Of a stretch of DNA of 64,000 bases, positions 44,784-56,339 are shown piece by piece (position 1 is the stretch's first letter; every line of letters starts with the position of its first letter). Where the stretch lies: NCBI RefSeq assembly GCF_013315695.1, contig NZ_CP054353.1, one strand, 5' to 3'. This stretch comes from Escherichia coli (GTDB lineage Bacteria; Pseudomonadota; Gammaproteobacteria; Enterobacterales; Enterobacteriaceae). The notes below the pieces were generated by a model, which saw only the letters and a list, made by a program, of their open reading frames with translations, was not told the DNA's origin and made no database searches. The position numbers and the translations under genes were made by a program.

Positions 44784-46673
44784 TTACGCATCGCCACCGA
44801 AACGACGACGACCGGTAGAGTCATCACGACGCGGTGCGCGGCCTTCACGACGTTCGCCGCTAAAACGACGACCATCACTACGGCCACCTTCACGGCGTTC
44901 ACCGCTGAAGTTACGACCGCCTTCACGACGTTCGCCACCGAAACCACGACCACCGCCACGACGCTCACCGCCAGTATGCGGCTGTGCATCGCCCAGTAAC
45001 TGCATATTCATCGGCTTGTTGAGAATGCGAGTACGCGTAAAGTGTTGCAGCACTTCACCCGGCATACCTTTCGGCAGTTCGATGGTGGAGTGAGAAGCAA
45101 ACAGCTTGATGTTACCGATGTAACGGCTGCTGATGTCGCCTTCGTTAGCAATCGCACCAACGATATGACGAACTTCAACACCATCATCGCGGCCCACTTC
45201 AATGCGGTACAGCTGCATATCGCCAACATCACGACGTTCGCGACGCGGACGATCTTCACGGTCGCCACGCGGGCCACGGTCGTTACGATCGCGCGGACCA
45301 CGGTCATCACGGTCACGGAATTCACGTTTCGGACGCATCGGCGCATCTGGCGGAACAATCAGAGTACGTTCACCCTGTGCCATTTTCAGCAGTGCGGCGG
45401 CCAGAGTTTCGAGATCCAGCTCTTCACCTTCTGCCGTCGGCTGAATTTTGCTCAGCAGTGCACGGTATTGATCCAGATCGCTGCTTTCCAGCTGCTGCTG
45501 TACTTTAGCGGCGAATTTTTCCAGACGACGTTTGCCCAGCAGTTCTGCGTTCGGCAGTTCAACTTCCGGAATGGTCAGCTTCATGGTGCGTTCAATGTTA
45601 CGCAGCAGACGACGCTCACGGTTCTCAACGAACAGCAGCGCACGGCCAGCACGGCCCGCACGACCAGTACGACCGATACGGTGAACGTAAGACTCAGAAT
45701 CCATCGGGATATCGTAGTTAACTACCAGGCTGATACGCTCAACGTCCAGGCCACGGGCCGCAACGTCGGTCGCAATCAGGATGTCCAGACGACCATCTTT
45801 CAGTCGTTCCAGTGTCTGCTCACGCAGCGCCTGGTTCATGTCACCGTTCAGCGCGGCGCTGTTGTAGCCGTTACGCTCAAGAGCTTCTGCCACTTCCAGA
45901 GTCGCGTTTTTGGTACGAACGAAGATAATCGCCGCATCAAAATCTTCCGCTTCCAGGAAACGTACCAGTGCTTCGTTTTTACGCATACCCCAGACAGTCC
46001 AGTAGCTCTGGCTGATGTCAGGACGGGTAGTCACGCTGGACTGAATGCGCACTTCCTGCGGCTCTTTCATAAAGCGGCGGGTAATGCGACGAATCGCTTC
46101 CGGCATGGTTGCAGAGAACAGAGCGGTCTGATGACCTTCCGGGATCTGCGCCATAATAGTTTCAACGTCTTCGATGAAGCCCATGCGCAGCATTTCGTCA
46201 GCTTCATCCAGAACCAGACCGCTCAATTTAGAGAGGTCCAGAGTGCCACGTTTCAGGTGGTCCAGCAGACGGCCCGGAGTACCGACAACGATCTGCGGCC
46301 CCTGACGCAGGGCGCGTAATTGCACGTCATAACGTTGGCCGCCGTACAGGGCAACCACGTTTACGCCGCGCATGTGTTTAGAGAAATCCGTCATTGCTTC
46401 AGCAACCTGTACCGCCAGTTCGCGGGTCGGTGCCAGCACCAGAATCTGTGGTGCTTTCAGCTCAGGATCAAGATTCTGCAGCAGAGGTAAAGAGAATGCT
46501 GCAGTTTTTCCGCTCCCCGTCTGGGCCATACCCAGAACGTCGCGGCCATTCAGCAGATGTGGAATACACTCTGCCTGAATTGGAGATGGTTTTTCGTAAC
46601 CCAGATCGTTAAGGGCTTCAAGGATAGGAGCCTTCAGGCCCAGATCTGCAAAAGTGGTTTCGAATTCAGCCAT
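44784..46673 (-). CDS. deaD: cold-shock DEAD-box RNA helicase DeaD (CsdA)
   Basis: ORF 44784..46739; start taken at [21 protein letters not shown] (629 aa); DEAD and SAT motifs; RGG/ERR-rich C-terminal tail. Confidence 0.93.
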
Positions 46674-46746
46674 GTAGTACGTGTGCCTCAAAATTAATGG
46701 CGGCCAGTCTACATAACTCATCATGAAATTGATCAGCAATTTTCAT
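46666..46746 (-). CDS. yrbN: small protein YrbN (26 aa), overlapping the deaD start
   Basis: ATG-initiated 26-codon [29 protein letters not shown]; stop overlaps deaD start codon region by 8 nt; identity from recall of a 26-aa yrbN at this position. Confidence 0.5.
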
Positions 46747-46852
46747 TGAAAAGTGTGAACCGGCTCAAAGTAGGTGTATTAACGAACAACAACGCCCTCA
46801 CCCGTTAAGGTGATGGCAATCAAAAAAGATTACGGGCTGATGTGTACGTCAG

Positions 46853-47737
46853 CTATTGCTGGTCCGATTCTGCCAGGTCATCTTGGTCCTGGCCCAGGAG
46901 CGATAATTCCAACAATGCGTATCGGTGCTCAACAAAGTTATGAACGTTGTTGGCAACCGCCAGTTTGAACAGTGCCGTGGCGCTGTCCAAATCCCCCAGA
47001 CTTAGGTAGTACTTACCTAAATAGAAGTTGGTTTCACTGAGATGCTCAGCGAGCGAGGTGTTATCCGTTGCGTCCGCCTTGAGCCTTTCCATTAACGTTT
47101 GTTCGCTAATGTTGCCCAGGTAGAACTCGACAATGTTCCATCCCCACTGTTCCTTATCCGATTTTTCGAAGTGCTGTTTCAACACTTCTTTAGCCTGCTT
47201 CTCATCGAGCTTCTGCTCGGCGAGATAAAGCCACAGACTACGGAAAGGATCATTGGGATCGTCTTGATAAAACGCCAGCAGATCATCTTGCGCTAACTTG
47301 TCACGACCGCCGTAATATAATGCGATCCCGCGATTCAAGTGCGCGTAGTTGTAAGTTGGATCAAGCTCAAGTACAGAATCAAACGCTTCATAGGCAGCAT
47401 CAAAATTGCCTGCCTGCGTTAAATATATGCCTAAGTAATTGAATACTTCAGGCATATCCGGTCGGATTGCCAGCGCTTGCGAAAAATCGTTACGCGCTAA
47501 TGCCCTCAGACCGAGACTATCATACAACACTCCGCGCTCATATAAAAGCTGTGCGCGTTCGTCATCGGTTAAAGCCCGACTGGCAAGGATCTGTTCCATA
47601 CGTGCCAGAATCACTTCCTGCTGTAAAGTCGGTTGCAATGGTACCGCGAGGACTTCACTTTTACGCCAGGAAGTATTACTGCATCCTGCAAGCGTAAGTG
47701 CTGTCGCAACGAAACACCAGCGCAAAAAAGGCTTCAT
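46853..47737 (-). CDS. nlpI: TPR-repeat outer-membrane lipoprotein NlpI
   Basis: 294-aa [32 protein letters not shown]... (lipobox). Confidence 0.93.
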
Positions 47738-47845
47738 TTCCCACTCCCGAAGACCACGGTTGAATGAACGTCCTGTTCCCGGTTGCTAACAAGGCGTCCT
47801 GCCCGGTTAAAAGCCCCCCGCCGCAGCGGAGGGCAAATGGCAACC

Positions 47846-49981
47846 TTACTCGCCCTGTTCAGCAGCCGGAGCTTCCGGTGCTGCAGCAGGTTGAGACTGC
47901 TCAGTCGCTTCTTTAATGCTCAGACGGATACGGCCCTGGCGATCAACTTCCAGCACTTTCACCGGTACTTCCTGACCCATCTGCAGGTAATCGGTCACTT
48001 TCTCAACGCGTTTATCAGCGATTTGAGAGATGTGTACCAGACCTTCTTTACCGCCGCCGATGGCAACAAATGCGCCGAAGTCAACGATACGGGTCACTTT
48101 ACCAGTGTAGACGCGGCCCACTTCAATTTCTGCAGTGATCTCTTCGATACGACGAATAGCGTGTTTCGCTTTCTCGCCGTCGGTCGCTGCGATCTTCACA
48201 GTACCGTCATCTTCGATTTCGATGGTGGTGCCGGTTTCTTCGGTCAGGGCACGGATAACAGAGCCGCCTTTACCGATAACGTCTTTGATCTTGTCCGGGT
48301 TGATCTTGATGGTATGGATACGCGGAGCGAACTCAGAGATATCGCCGCGCGGCGCGTTGATCGCCTGTTCCATTACGCCCAGGATATGCAGACGAGCACC
48401 TTTAGCCTGGTTCAGCGCAACCTGCATGATCTCTTTGGTGATACCTTCAATTTTGATATCCATCTGCAATGCAGAGATACCGTCGCGGGAACCCGCAACT
48501 TTGAAGTCCATATCGCCCAGGTGATCTTCGTCGCCCAAAATGTCAGACAGTACAACGTAGTTGTCGCCTTCTTTCACCAGACCCATTGCGATACCCGCAA
48601 CAGCAGCTTTGATCGGCACACCTGCGTCCATCAGCGCCAGAGACGCGCCGCACACGGAAGCCATAGAAGAAGAACCGTTGGATTCGGTGATTTCAGACAC
48701 CACACGTACGGTGTACGGGAATTTGTCCATATCCGGCATGACTGCCAGCACGCCGCGCTTCGCCAGACGACCGTGACCAATTTCACGACGCTTCGGAGAA
48801 CCGACCATGCCGGTTTCGCCTACGGAGTACGGAGGGAAGTTGTAGTGGAACAGGAAGGTGTCAGTACGTTCGCCCATCAGTTCATCAAGAACCTGCGCGT
48901 CACGTGCAGTACCCAGCGTTGCGGTAACCAGCGCCTGAGTTTCACCACGGGTGAACAGCGCAGAACCGTGAGTACGCGGCAGCACGCCAGTACGCACATC
49001 CAGACCACGAATCATATCTTTTTCACGACCGTCGATACGCGGTTCGCCTGCCAGTACGCGGCTACGAACAACGTTTTTCTCGATAGCGTGCAGAATTTCA
49101 CCCAGTTCGTTTTCGTCCAGGGTTTCATCTTCAGCAAGCAGCGTCGCGATGGTTTCAGATTTGATGACATCAACCTGCGCATAACGCTCTTGTTTGTCGG
49201 TGATGCGGTAAGCATCGCTCAGACGAGCTTCAGCCAGTGCAGCAACGCGCGCGTTCAGCGCTTCGTTTACCGGCTCCGGCTGCCAGTCCCAACGCGGTTT
49301 ACCGGCTTCTTTCACCAGTTCATTGATGTTCTGAATGACAACCTGCTGTTGTTCATGACCAAACACTACTGCGCCCAACATCTGGTCTTCGCTCAGCAGT
49401 TCAGCTTCAGATTCAACCATCAGTACAGCGGCTTCAGTACCCGCAACAACCAGATCCAGTTTGCTCTCTTTCAGCTCGTCCTGAGTCGGGTTCAGTACGT
49501 ACTGGTCATTGATGTAACCTACGCGGGCAGCACCAATCGGACCATTGAACGGAATACCAGACAGAGACAGTGCTGCGGAAGCACCAATCATCGCGACGAT
49601 ATCCGGGTTAACTTGCGGGTTAACAGAAACCACGGTGGCGATAACCTGAACTTCGTTGACGAAGCCTTCCGGGAACAGCGGGCGAATCGGGCGGTCAATC
49701 AGACGCGCGATCAGGGTTTCGCCTTCGCTTGGGCGGCCTTCACGACGGAAGAAGCTACCCGGGATACGACCAGCAGCGTAGGTACGCTCCTGATAGTTAA
49801 CGGTCAGTGGGAAGAAGTCCTGACCTGGTTTGGCTTTTTTCTGGCCAACAACGGTAACGAATACCGCGGTGTCATCCATGCTAACCATAACAGCGGCAGT
49901 AGCCTGACGAGCCATCATGCCGGTTTCCAGAGTCACGGTGTGTTGGCCGTACTGGAATTTACGAACGATCGGATTAAGCAA
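47846..49981 (-). CDS. pnp: polynucleotide phosphorylase (PNPase), UUG start
   Basis: ORF 47846..50068; N-terminus [21 protein letters not shown] with TTG at complement of 49979..49981; KH and S1 domains at C-terminus. Confidence 0.93.
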
Positions 49982-50037
49982 TGTAATATCCTTTCTCTTT
50001 CTTAGACAGTACCTTACGGCACTGGTGTTAATACCCG

Positions 50038-50211
50038 ATCTTCTGCGCATCCTCGCGACTAATGACAACCCTAACCCAGCCCAATGTGGGTAAAGCCTCT
50101 CATTAGCCGCGCGAACCTCTGCAACGGAAGATCATTCATAGCAACAATACATTAGTTTCCAGTGAATTGCTGCCGTCAGCTTGAAAAAAGGGGCCACTCA
50201 GGCCCCCTTTT
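50038..50211 (+). ncRNA. sraG: small RNA SraG (PsrO), antisense to the pnp leader; boundaries approximate
   Basis: Placed from remembered K-12 spacing (about 57 nt from pnp start, ending about 17 nt before rpsO stop); ends at the bidirectional hairpin. Confidence 0.4.
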
Positions 50212-50213
50212 CT
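50184..50213 (-). terminator. rpsO rho-independent terminator (bidirectional hairpin)
   Basis: GGGGCC-ACTCA-GGCCCC stem flanked by A6 on one side and CTTTTCT on the other. Confidence 0.75.
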
Positions 50214-50227
50214 GAAACTCGCAAGAA

Positions 50228-50593
<366 letters not shown>

Positions 50594-50645
50594 TTAAGCG
50601 GCAGTATTCTACTCGTAGCGACCTGTTATCGCAAGACGGTTAACA

Positions 50646-51590
50646 TTACGCCGGGTATTCAACCACCAGGCGACGAGGCGCGACGCGGCCTTCATCGTCA
50701 ATTTCGCCCATACCGATAAACTTGCCGTTCTCACCTTCTGTAACGCGAACCAGTCCTTCCAGCGGCGCACCGGATGTACGAACCGGGTTACCATTTTTGA
50801 AGTAAACAGAAGACGTTAACGGAAGATTCACCACCGGGTAGTCCGAAGCTGGACTGTCCATTGGCATCAGTAATGGATCAAGTAACTCCGCGGCTGGAAT
50901 ATCCTGCTGTTCGGCTTGTTCAACCAGTTCACGCAGATGTTCCAGGGTCACCATCCGTTCAACCGGATATTTACTTACCGCCAGACGACGCAGGTAAATA
51001 ACATGCGCGCCACAACCGAGTTTTTCGCCGAGATCGTCAATGATAGTGCGGATATAGGTGCCTTTTGAGCAGTGAATTTCCAGCTCCAGCTCATTGCCTT
51101 CATGGCGAATAAACAGCAATTCATAAACGGTAATCGGGCGCGCTTCACGCGGAACTTCAATGCCCTGACGCGCGTATTCGTACAGTTTTTTGCCCTGATA
51201 TTTCAGTGCTGAATACATCGAAGGGATCTGTTCGATATCGCCACGGAAGGTATCCAGCGCCGCCGCCAGTTGCTCTGCACTAAAGGTTACCGGACGTTCT
51301 TCAACGATTTGTCCGTCGGCATCAGAAGTATCGGTACGCTGTCCAAGACGCGCAATGACCCGATAGCGTTTGTCGGAGTCCAGCAGATACTGGGAAAACT
51401 TCGTCGCTTCCCCGAGGCAAATTGGCAACATGCCGGTCGCCAGCGGGTCCAGCGCACCGGTATGCCCGGCACGGTTGGCGTTATAAATCCGTTTCACTTT
51501 TTGCAGTGCATCGTTGCTGGACATCCCCTGCGGTTTATCCAGCAACAAAACGCCGTTAATGTCGCGACCGCGACGACGAGGACGACTCAT
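50646..51590 (-). CDS. truB: tRNA pseudouridine-55 synthase TruB
   Basis: 314-aa [37 protein letters not shown]... Confidence 0.95.
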
Positions 51591-51991
51591 TAGTCCTCCT
51601 TGCTGTCGTCCGGGTTAACACGACGTTCTTCGTCATGTTTGACCACGCTGGTCACCAGGTTTGACATGCGCATCCCTTCAACCAGAGAGTTGTCGTAGAA
51701 GAAGGTCAGTTCCGGCACGATACGCAGGCGCATCGCTTTCCCCAGCAGGCTGCGGATGAAACCAGAAGCTTCCTGCAACGCTTTGATGCCCGCTTTAACC
51801 GCGTCTTCATCTTTGTCGTTGAGGAACGTCACATATACTTTGGCATACGCCAGGTCGCGAGACATTTCGACACCGGAAACGGTGGTCATCATGCCCAGAC
51901 GAGGATCTTTAATTTCACGCTGCAGGATGAGAGCGATCTCTTTTTGCATTTCCTGCGCTACGCGCTGCGGGCGACCAAATTCTTTCGCCAT
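51590..51991 (-). CDS. rbfA: ribosome-binding factor A
   Basis: ORF 51590..52009; start taken at [20 protein letters not shown] (133 aa). Confidence 0.93.
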
Positions 51992-52059
51992 AATAAATTC
52001 TCCTGACAAAAAAGGGGCTGTTAGCCCCTTTTTAAAATTAATTTCAGGTGGAAGGGCTG

Positions 52060-52140
52060 TTCACGTTGGCCTGATAAGACGCGCCAGCGTCGCATCAGGC
52101 AATCCATGCCGGATGCGGCGTAAACGCCTTATCCCGCATG
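52060..52140. repeat. REP palindromic element between infB and rbfA
   Basis: GCCTGATAAGACGCGCCAGCGTCGCATCAGGC and GCCGGATGCGGCGTAAACGCCTTATCC motifs. Confidence 0.7.
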
Positions 52141-52154
52141 GAACCCTAAAAACC

Positions 52155-54827
52155 TTAAGCGATGGTACGTTGGATTTCGATGATTTCGAATACTTCGATC
52201 ACATCGCCAGTGCGGACATCGTTGTAGTTCTTAACGCCGATACCACATTCCATACCGTTACGGACTTCGTTAACGTCATCTTTGAAGCGGCGCAGGGACT
52301 CCAGCTCGCCTTCGTAGATAACCACGTTGTCGCGCAGAACGCGGATCGGGTTGTGACGTTTAACCACACCTTCGGTAACCATACAGCCTGCGATGGCACC
52401 AAATTTCGGCGATTTGAACACGTCACGAACTTCCGCCAGACCGATAATCTGCTGTTTCAGTTCCGGAGACAGCATACCGCTCATTGCCGCTTTCACTTCG
52501 TCGATCAGGTTATAGATGACGGAGTAGTAACGCAGATCCAGGCTTTCCGCTTCAATTACTTTACGTGCAGAGGCATCAGCACGTACGTTGAAGCCAACCA
52601 GGATGGCGTTGGACGCCGCAGCCAGGGTAGCGTCGGTTTCGGTGATACCACCTACGCCAGAACCGATGATCTTCACTTTAACTTCGTCAGTAGACAGTTT
52701 CAGCAAGGAGTCGGAGATAGCTTCCACAGAACCCTGTACGTCTGCCTTCAGGACGATATTCACTTCGTGAACTTCGCCTTCGGTCATGTTGGCGAACATG
52801 TTCTCGAGTTTAGATTTCTGCTGACGCGCCAGTTTAACTTCGCGGAATTTACCCTGACGATAGAGTGCAACTTCACGCGCTTTCTTCTCGTCACGTACAA
52901 CGGTAACTTCATCACCCGCAGCCGGAACGCCGGACAGGCCGAGGATTTCCACCGGAATGGACGGACCCGCTTCCAGCACTTCCTGACCCAGTTCGTTACG
53001 CATCGCACGAACACGACCGTATTCGAAGCCACACAGAACGATATCGCCCTTGTGCAGAGTACCTTCACGTACCAGAACGGTAGCAACCGGACCACGACCT
53101 TTATCGAGGAAGGATTCGATAACCGCACCGCTCGCCATGCCTTTACGTACCGCTTTCAGTTCCAGAACTTCCGCCTGCAGCAGGATAGCGTCCAGCAGCT
53201 CATCGATACCAGTACCCGCTTTCGCAGACACATGTACGAACTGGCTTTCACCGCCCCACTCTTCCGGCAGGATGCCGTACTGGGAGAGTTCGTTCTTAAC
53301 GCGATCCGGATCGGCTTCTGGTTTATCGATCTTGTTCACTGCAACGACCACCGGAACCTGCGCCGCTTTCGCGTGCTGGATTGCTTCGATGGTCTGCGGC
53401 ATTACGCCGTCGTCGGCAGCAACAACCAGGACTACGATGTCCGTTGCCTGCGCACCACGAGCACGCATTGAAGTAAACGCGGCGTGCCCCGGGGTGTCCA
53501 GGAAGGTGATCATGCCGTTTTCAGTTTCAACGTGGTATGCACCAATGTGCTGAGTAATGCCGCCCGCTTCGCCAGAGGCCACTTTCGTTGAACGAATGTA
53601 GTCCAGCAGAGAGGTTTTACCGTGGTCAACGTGTCCCATGATGGTCACAACCGGCGCGCGCGGTTCAGCCGCTGCACCCGTGTCACGGTCGCTCATTACC
53701 GCCTCTTCCAGCTCGTTTTCACGACGCAGGATAACTTTGTGGCCCATCTCTTCAGCAACCAGCTGTGCGGTTTCCTGATCGATAACCTGGTTGATGGTTG
53801 CCATTGCGCCCAGTTTCATCATCGCTTTGATGACCTGAGAGCCTTTAACCGCCATCTTGTTCGCCAGTTCGCCAACGGTGATGGTTTCACCGATCACAAC
53901 GTCACGGTTAACGGCCTGAGCAGGCTTCTGGAAGCCTTGCTGCAGCGAAGAACCTTTACGTTTTCCGCCTTTACCGCCACGTACTGCTGCGCGTGCTTCT
54001 TCACGATCAGCTTTTGATTCAGCGTGTTTGTTGCCTTTCTTCGGACGCGCAGCTTTCGCGTTACGACCACGGCCACGGCCGCCCTCGACTTCACGATCGC
54101 TTTCGTCTTCTGCCTGGCGAGCATGTTGAGAAGTAGTGACGTGATAATCGCTGGAATCTTCAGTCGGTTCCGCGTTATCAGTCCATTTGTTTTCTTCCGC
54201 CATACGACGTGCTTCTTCAGCAACGCGACGTGCTTCTTCTTCGAGTTTACGACGCGCTTCTTCTTCGGCTTTACGCTTGAGCTCTGCAGCTTCCTGCTCA
54301 CGGCGGGCTTTTTCAGCCTGGGCGTTTTTAGTCATATCGTCTTGTTGATTGCTCACTTTGTCTTTTTCCGCAGCTTCACGTTTCGCTTGTTCAGCAGCTT
54401 CACGCTTAGCTTGTTCTGCGGCCTCACGTTCAGCTTTTTGTTGCGCCTCGCGTTTAGCCGATTCTTCTGCCTCACGACGGGCTTGCTCTTCCGCTTCACG
54501 CTGCGCTTGCTCTTCCGCTGCAAGGCGTTCAGCCTCTTGCGGATCGCGTTTCACAAAGGTGCGTTTCTTGCGGACTTCGATTTGTACCGATTTGCTTTTT
54601 CCACCGGTACCAGGAATGTTAAGGGTGCTGCGTGTTTTACGTTGCAGCGTCAATTTGTCCGGGCCTGAATTTTTCTGATTCAGGTGGTCAATCAAAGTCT
54701 GTTTCTCTTGCGCAGACACAGAGTCGTCAGCAGACTTCCGGATACCTGCATCAGCAAATTGCTGTACCAGGCGTTCCACGGAGGTCTGTCGCTCTGCGGC
54801 CAGCGTTTTAATCGTTACATCTGTCAT
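52155..54827 (-). CDS. infB: translation initiation factor IF-2
   Basis: 890-aa [35 protein letters not shown]...; GTPase G-domain ([12 protein letters not shown]). Confidence 0.96.
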
Positions 54828-54851
54828 GCTGTTCCTTCCTGCTACAGTTTA

Positions 54852-56339
<1,488 letters not shown>

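Follow-up and report, generated by a model that had tools for sequence, protein, structure and literature searches.

The best-described counterpart of the region analysed here is the rpsO-pnp locus of Escherichia coli K-12. Transcripts from the rpsO promoter P1 either stop at the Rho-independent terminator T1 or continue into pnp (Fontaine et al. 2016, RNA 22:1560, PMC5029454), and a further promoter, P2, lies downstream of T1 (PMC5029454). RNase III cleaves the pnp leader at a long stem-loop, which triggers the autoregulation of polynucleotide phosphorylase (PNPase) (PMC5029454). The opposite strand specifies SraG, whose transcript in K-12 was defined by cRT-PCR, Northern blots and a mutant of the -10 region. 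Compared with the 5' end in the annotation of Argaman et al. 2001, its start is shifted 42 nt upstream, so that the primary transcript measures 216 nt (PMC5029454). It is only this longer form that represses pnp: full-length SraG abolishes the toe-print at the UUG of pnp, whereas the form that is 42 nt shorter does not, and mutation of the -10 region of the SraG promoter raises both pnp mRNA and PNPase 1.3-fold (PMC5029454). The terminators of rpsO (T1) and of SraG are one bidirectional terminator (Fontaine et al. 2016, PMC5029454); most SraG 3' ends recovered by cRT-PCR fall at it and a few fall downstream, with some read-through (PMC5029454). Whatever is said below of transcript ends, termination, the toe-print and repression is taken from the published studies (Fontaine et al. 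2016; Argaman et al. 2001).

We compared with this system the corresponding region of a 64,000-nt stretch of E. coli DNA (contig NZ_CP054353.1 of assembly GCF_013315695.1), the whole of which is called the window. We hold with very high confidence that the window carries the canonical E. coli rpsO-pnp intergenic region, with a pnp gene starting at UUG, SraG and a shared two-way terminator; no observation speaks against this. Every element named in the initial annotation of this DNA is already published, and the locus is a textbook case with nothing new in it; being a classic model for mRNA decay and autoregulation, it carries little weight as a discovery. What follows sets out how each element is recognised, and which strand the conservation of the interval reflects. 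Sequence identity, folds, conservation and Rfam membership come from the present analysis.

Identity and layout of the rpsO-pnp interval

Read on the minus strand, positions 49700-50700 of the window hold the end of truB, a P1-like promoter, rpsO, a spacer and pnp (Table 1). The spacer is 246 bp long, just as the initial annotation had it, occupying 49982-50227 and ending at the rpsO stop codon TAA (50228-50230). Many E. coli chromosomes match the window at 100% identity over the 701 bases of 49900-50600, and the region is found in 5424 of 5426 complete E. coli genomes. An ungapped alignment with K-12 MG1655 over 301 bases has no indels and just two substitutions, at 50081 (C for T) and 50083 (A for T), both in the apical loop of the hairpin shared by the RNase III substrate and SraG. 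The MG1655 annotation of this region comprises pnp (b3164), the ncRNA sraG (b4449, 216 nt, plus strand) and rpsO (b3165), which were transferred to the window at the positions given in Table 1, and the RefSeq PGAP annotation of one identical E. coli genome places pnp and rpsO at coordinates that match those of the window exactly.

Table 1. Features of the rpsO-pnp region, in window coordinates
Feature	Position	Strand	Basis
pnp CDS (polynucleotide phosphorylase, 711 aa)	47846-49981	minus	ORF/translation, RefSeq and MG1655 annotation, PDB chains
pnp TTG (UUG) start	49979-49981	minus	direct reading, 23/23 Enterobacterales, published toe-print
SraG promoter, predicted -10 region TGTAATAT, between pnp Shine-Dalgarno and TTG	49982-49989	plus	placed from the mapped +1 at 49996
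pnp Shine-Dalgarno AAGGA, 7 nt upstream of TTG	49989-49993	minus	sequence and conservation
SraG primary transcript, 216 nt (MG1655 b4449)	49996-50211	plus	MG1655 ncRNA feature 3311183-3311398, ungapped mapping, cRT-PCR/Northern in PMC5029454
Long stem-loop R of the pnp leader, RNase III substrate; its complement is the first hairpin of the Rfam SraG model	50038-50133	minus	fold, consensus pairs, PMC5029454
Probable pnp P2 promoter, CTGACG-17-ACTAAT	50179-50151	minus	hexamers read from sequence
Bidirectional intrinsic terminator T1/T	50184-50213	both	folds, z-scores, terminator scan, conservation, PMC5029454
rpsO CDS (ribosomal protein S15, 89 aa)	50228-50497	minus	ORF, RefSeq/MG1655 annotation
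Ribosomal S15 leader RF00114, autoregulatory structure at rpsO start (known element)	50441-50555	minus	Rfam, 117.6 bits
P1-like promoter TTGCGA-17-TAGAAT (known element)	50634-50606	minus	strict sigma-70 scan

For comparison across species, the final 18 bases of rpsO (CTGGGTCTGCGTCGCTAA) served as query against species-representative genomes, and at least 120 loci were obtained. Among the matches listed, 22 were from Enterobacterales with the whole spacer, which together with the window make the 23 loci compared throughout. Exact matches to CTGGGTCTGCGTCGCTAA were also seen, among the matches listed, in Pseudomonas, Marinobacter, Chromatiaceae, Calditrichia, Corynebacterium and MAGs of Actinomycetota; some of the distant ones are probably chance or non-rpsO matches, as several are not followed by a PNPase motif. 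A permissive Rfam scan was run over 45000-55000. Outside the interval, at 52068-52138, the naRNA4/CssrE family matches on both strands, more strongly on the minus (77 bits) than on the plus (41 bits); the match is a palindromic element of the REP type between infB and rbfA, and Escherichia albertii has one at the same place.

The UUG start codon of pnp

Downward from 49981 the minus strand reads TTG CTT AAT CCG ATC GTT, that is (M)LNPIV, and the translation matches the E. coli PNPase chains in the PDB over residues 1-711, which likewise begin MLNPIV. The TTG is preceded by the Shine-Dalgarno sequence AAGGA, so that the leader has both the UUG start and the ribosome-binding site of the pnp system. 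Both are invariant in the loci compared: the codon aligned to the E. coli start is TTG in all 23 loci, and an AAGG(A/G/T) Shine-Dalgarno sequence stands before it at constant spacing in every one of them. The reading frame upstream of the TTG meets an intergenic in-frame stop in 23/23 loci. In 17 of these there is no ATG, GTG or TTG at all between the nearest upstream stop and the start codon, and in Tatumella and two Serratia species the stop is just two codons away. A downstream start is ruled out by the conservation of PNPase residues 2-21, which at the protein level extends to Pseudomonas. These comparative data confirm, cleanly and independently, that pnp starts at a codon other than ATG, and they agree with the published 30S/tRNAfMet toe-print, which maps 15 nt away from that UUG (Fontaine et al. 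2016, PMC5029454). Hence the TTG at 49979-49981, which the initial annotation had proposed as the PNPase start, is borne out by the annotation of reference genomes, the published toe-print, conservation and upstream stops. A search of the literature for PNPase N-terminal sequencing yielded only Fontaine et al. 2016. That the UUG codon is tied to the autoregulation of PNPase is plausible.

The window genome taken by itself would allow a longer protein: before the annotated TTG, the pnp frame runs for 51 codons without a stop, with an in-frame ATG 23 codons (50048-50050) and a TTG 29 codons (50066-50068) upstream, and a mechanical ORF call accordingly extends the gene to 50068, giving 740 aa instead of 711. 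However, so long an open frame occurs only in E. coli and E. albertii, with a similar but shorter one in one Enterobacter, and in all 21 other relatives an in-frame stop closes it 2-35 codons before the TTG. The upstream ATG moreover lies inside the RNase III stem and lacks a properly spaced Shine-Dalgarno sequence, the toe-print is located at the UUG (PMC5029454), and all E. coli PNPase structures are of the 711-aa protein. Initiation at either upstream codon was therefore rejected, its probability being practically negligible given that the frame is closed by stops outside E. coli and E. albertii.

Some further observations concern the coding region of pnp and its relatives. Residue 194 of PNPase is E in the window and Q in the E. 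coli PDB chain 7ogk. In Pseudomonas (loci L004, L006 and many others), the codon aligned to the TTG translates as Val (..DT V NPVIKKF..) and a stop lies two codons upstream; as read from the translation, this suggests a GTG start for pnp in these bacteria, and non-ATG starts of pnp may be widespread in Gammaproteobacteria. The plus strand of the window also holds a stop-free ORF of 740 aa exactly antisense to pnp (47783-50005). 'Shadow' ORFs of this kind occur opposite strongly codon-biased genes, and the one at 47783-50005 is almost certainly such an ORF and not a gene.

SraG and the terminator shared with rpsO

In the Rfam scan, the SraG family RF00082 matches the plus strand at 50040-50211 with 162.2 bits (gathering score 50; E 2.3e-30), and the match covers the full model, positions 1-177 of 177. 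The covariance search that had been proposed as a check thus places SraG between pnp and rpsO and antisense to both. The strand and place assigned to SraG by the initial annotation stand, as the Rfam match and the MG1655 annotation agree with them; its limits, 50038-50211, do not, being those of a superseded 174-nt form. Subtracting the 42 nt by which the start was moved from 50038 gives 49996, a T on the plus strand, in agreement with both the paper and the MG1655 feature. For annotation, the point of value is that the window carries the current 216-nt SraG (49996-50211) and not the 174-nt form that is still embodied in the boundaries of the Rfam model. The only small ORF within SraG is an unsupported one of 23 aa starting at ATG (50084-50155, plus strand).

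For the exact hexamers of the SraG and P2 promoters, we infer the positions from the sequence. With the mapped SraG start as +1, TAATAT occupies -12 to -7, within the spacer between the pnp Shine-Dalgarno sequence and the TTG. This placement fits the published remark that the -10 mutation is close to the pnp Shine-Dalgarno sequence without overlapping it (PMC5029454). The promoter and +1 sequence in the window are identical to those of K-12, and from this identity we predict that the strain transcribes SraG from the start mapped in K-12. A strict sigma-70 scan returned P1 of rpsO as its sole match and detected neither the SraG promoter nor P2. Across all 23 species, a -10-like hexamer, often CAAAAT and overlapping the start codon, is found at this place, and the spacer between the Shine-Dalgarno sequence and the TTG is AU-rich everywhere. 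Enterobacter cloacae, Serratia and Pluralibacter have an altered version of the E. coli -10 sequence. For P2, the block TAATGTATTGTTG at the position proposed in Table 1 is conserved in relatives, and 50151-50179 is its probable site. Enterobacter sp. BIGb0383 and Kluyvera genomosp. 1 have inserts of about 91 and 103 nt, respectively, between the terminator and the TAATGTATTGTTG block, where the spacer between the -35 and -10 elements of E. coli P2 would lie. The Kluyvera insert forms a long imperfect hairpin (-25.9 kcal/mol), which suggests that it could be a small mobile repeat.

At the other end of SraG, direct reading agrees with the initial description of a hairpin at 50190-50206 having an A-run on one side and a T-run on the other. 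On the minus strand, 21 nt past the rpsO stop codon, it takes the form GGGGCC-TGAGT-GGCCCC (50206-50190), with AGAAAAG (50213-50207) before it and TTTTTT (50189-50184) after it; on the plus strand, GGGGCC-ACUCA-GGCCCC is followed by CTTTTCT (50207-50213). The 30-mer 50184-50213 folds stably on each strand and does better than its shuffled versions: the minus-strand RNA reaches -19.5 kcal/mol (z -3.9), a stability equalled by 0 of 200 shuffles, and the plus-strand RNA -14.1 kcal/mol (z -2.3), equalled by 2 of 200. In the sense of rpsO, there is a GC-rich stem followed by a U-run, and pairing between the A-run and the U-run lengthens the stem to 12 pairs, with G·U and A-U pairs beyond the six G-C pairs, before the U-run. 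The opposite strand also has its U-run but is the poorer terminator, with one extra C between the stem and a run of only four U and a fold weaker by about 5 kcal/mol; a scan for the terminator consensus nevertheless lists the plus-strand hairpin, with six G-C pairs, a loop of five and the tail CTTTTCTGAA containing 5 T in 8. That this one element ends both rpsO and SraG, as had been proposed for the window, is supported by the statement of Fontaine et al. 2016 (PMC5029454) that they share a single terminator.

Comparison of the terminator between species was made by measuring the core motif. The core GGGGCC-loop-GGCCCC is kept in 23/23 loci, as is the A-rich/T-rich symmetry around it. The tail in the rpsO sense has 6-7 T in 8 in every species and the antisense tail 3-6 T in 8, and the fold is predicted to be more stable in the sense orientation in 22 of the 23 loci and equally stable in both in the remaining one. 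The two-way shape of the terminator is thus conserved, yet it is consistently lopsided. In Erwinia and Tatumella, the core lies about 65 nt from the rpsO stop codon.

This lopsidedness bears on whether the hairpin might be a one-way element, terminating rpsO and stabilising its 3' end, with the SraG 3' ends at 50208-50211 left by exonucleolytic trimming of read-through RNA. The short, interrupted plus-strand tail (C-UUUU-C-U) and the weaker stem (-14.1 vs -19.5 kcal/mol) would be expected of such an element, as would the bias of tails and folding energies toward the sense strand among the 23 species, the count of G·U cells among the terminator pairs, 8 in sense and 0 in antisense, and the SraG clones that end downstream of the terminator (PMC5029454). 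Nonetheless, even the plus strand has the usual attributes of an intrinsic terminator in its six G-C pairs and 5 T in 8, the symmetry of A- and U-tracts is conserved in all 23 species, and most cRT-PCR clones stop at the terminator, which the authors treat as bidirectional (PMC5029454). As trimming and termination would yield identical 3' ends, these data cannot fully separate the two readings, but we consider a one-way element quite improbable and retain a bidirectional terminator of unequal strength on its two strands.

The strand reflected by the conservation and the place of the locus among known systems

The Rfam SraG model matches 22/22 relatives, always on the strand opposite the S15 leader. 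The same interval is, on the minus strand, the pnp leader, which has the long conserved 5' UTR stem-loop of an autoregulated leader, its cleavage being known from the literature; the fold of the whole leader region has a z-score of -5.2, and the hairpin at 50038-50133 alone reaches -43.6 kcal/mol on the minus strand vs -30.6 as plus-strand RNA. In Dickeya, the apical loop of this hairpin carries an insertion of 48 nt. An alignment of the 17 species that lack large insertions served to compare the two strands. Its consensus structure reaches -55.1 kcal/mol on the pnp strand vs -22.4 for the antisense alignment. The long hairpin has 28 consensus pairs on the pnp strand, of which 97.9% are canonical with 76 G·U cells, and the same 28 pairs on the SraG strand are 81.8% canonical with 0 G·U cells; choosing the pairs from the sense-strand prediction favours that strand, but the energy gap and the complete lack of antisense G·U pairs agree with the result anyway. 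The long hairpin is tuned to the pnp mRNA strand, and given this asymmetry (76 vs 0 G·U; -55 vs -22 kcal/mol) we attribute the conservation of the sequence to the pnp leader, acting in cis, and to the rpsO terminator rather than to SraG. As a caution, a covariance-model match to an antisense RNA over a structured leader marks a position and does not prove expression. It is a tentative possibility, and on balance a doubtful one, that the Rfam 'SraG' family is largely the mirror image of a cis-regulatory element of the sense strand, with a functional antisense RNA only where a working promoter has been retained between the Shine-Dalgarno sequence and the TTG, for instance in Escherichia, some Citrobacter, Pectobacterium and Brenneria. 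If this were true, many database 'SraG' matches would not be sRNA genes.

Pressed further, the asymmetry could be taken to mean that 'SraG' is conserved on the plus strand solely as the mirror of the cis signals of the pnp and rpsO mRNAs, the transcript being a low-level by-product of the AT-rich start-codon region with little physiological role. Besides the tuning of the hairpin to the pnp strand in both its pairs and its energies, one may adduce that a -10 region lying in an AU-rich spacer makes -10-like hexamers in all species expected without selection, and that SraG is poorly expressed and its promoter mutant shifts PNPase by the small factor given above (PMC5029454). Against so reduced a role stand the experiments in E. 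coli, in which full-length SraG, and not its 5'-truncated form, blocks the pnp toe-print in vitro, overexpressed SraG destabilises pnp mRNA, the -10 mutation raises pnp mRNA and PNPase, and an older autoregulation mutant maps to the SraG -10 region; a trans target has also been reported for SraG of Yersinia pseudotuberculosis (all PMC5029454). A mere by-product is for us an unlikely account, and we favour a genuine, if modest, antisense regulator superimposed on a leader whose conservation has another source.

On the reading we prefer, with a genuine SraG and a bidirectional T1, the elements of the interval would work as follows. On the minus strand, rpsO transcripts from P1 would mostly halt at T1, at the hairpin 50190-50206 and its six U, and the transcripts that read through, together with those from P2, would carry the pnp leader. 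RNase III would cut the leader stem-loop at 50038-50133, with which the autoregulation of PNPase would begin, and translation of pnp would then initiate at UUG 49979-49981 behind the AAGGA Shine-Dalgarno sequence. Plus-strand transcription would begin at 49996, from a promoter that overlaps the start codon of pnp, and give the 216-nt SraG, complementary to the whole pnp 5' UTR as far as the edge of the Shine-Dalgarno sequence and ending at the T1 hairpin in the other direction, where GGGGCC-loop-GGCCCC is followed by CUUUU. Pairing of full-length SraG with pnp mRNA would block 30S binding, create new RNase III cuts and modestly lower PNPase.

In Firmicutes, RliD of Listeria monocytogenes and ref41 of Enterococcus faecalis occupy the same neighbourhood as SraG, being antisense at or next to pnpA, but neither has high sequence similarity to it, and ref41 contains a 43-aa ORF (PMC5029454). 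The closest systems are those of E. coli itself. With T1 and the autoregulated pnp leader described by Portier, Régnier, Hajnsdorf and co-workers (via PMC5029454), the window shares the hairpin 21 nt past the rpsO stop codon with its six U, as well as the long stem-loop and the UUG start; the locus is the type example of this leader and has no differences from it. SraG of the window is likewise the same gene as RF00082 and K-12 b4449, at the same position and on the same strand between pnp and rpsO, and apart from two bases of the hairpin loop it is identical to the K-12 sraG feature, with no difference of substance.
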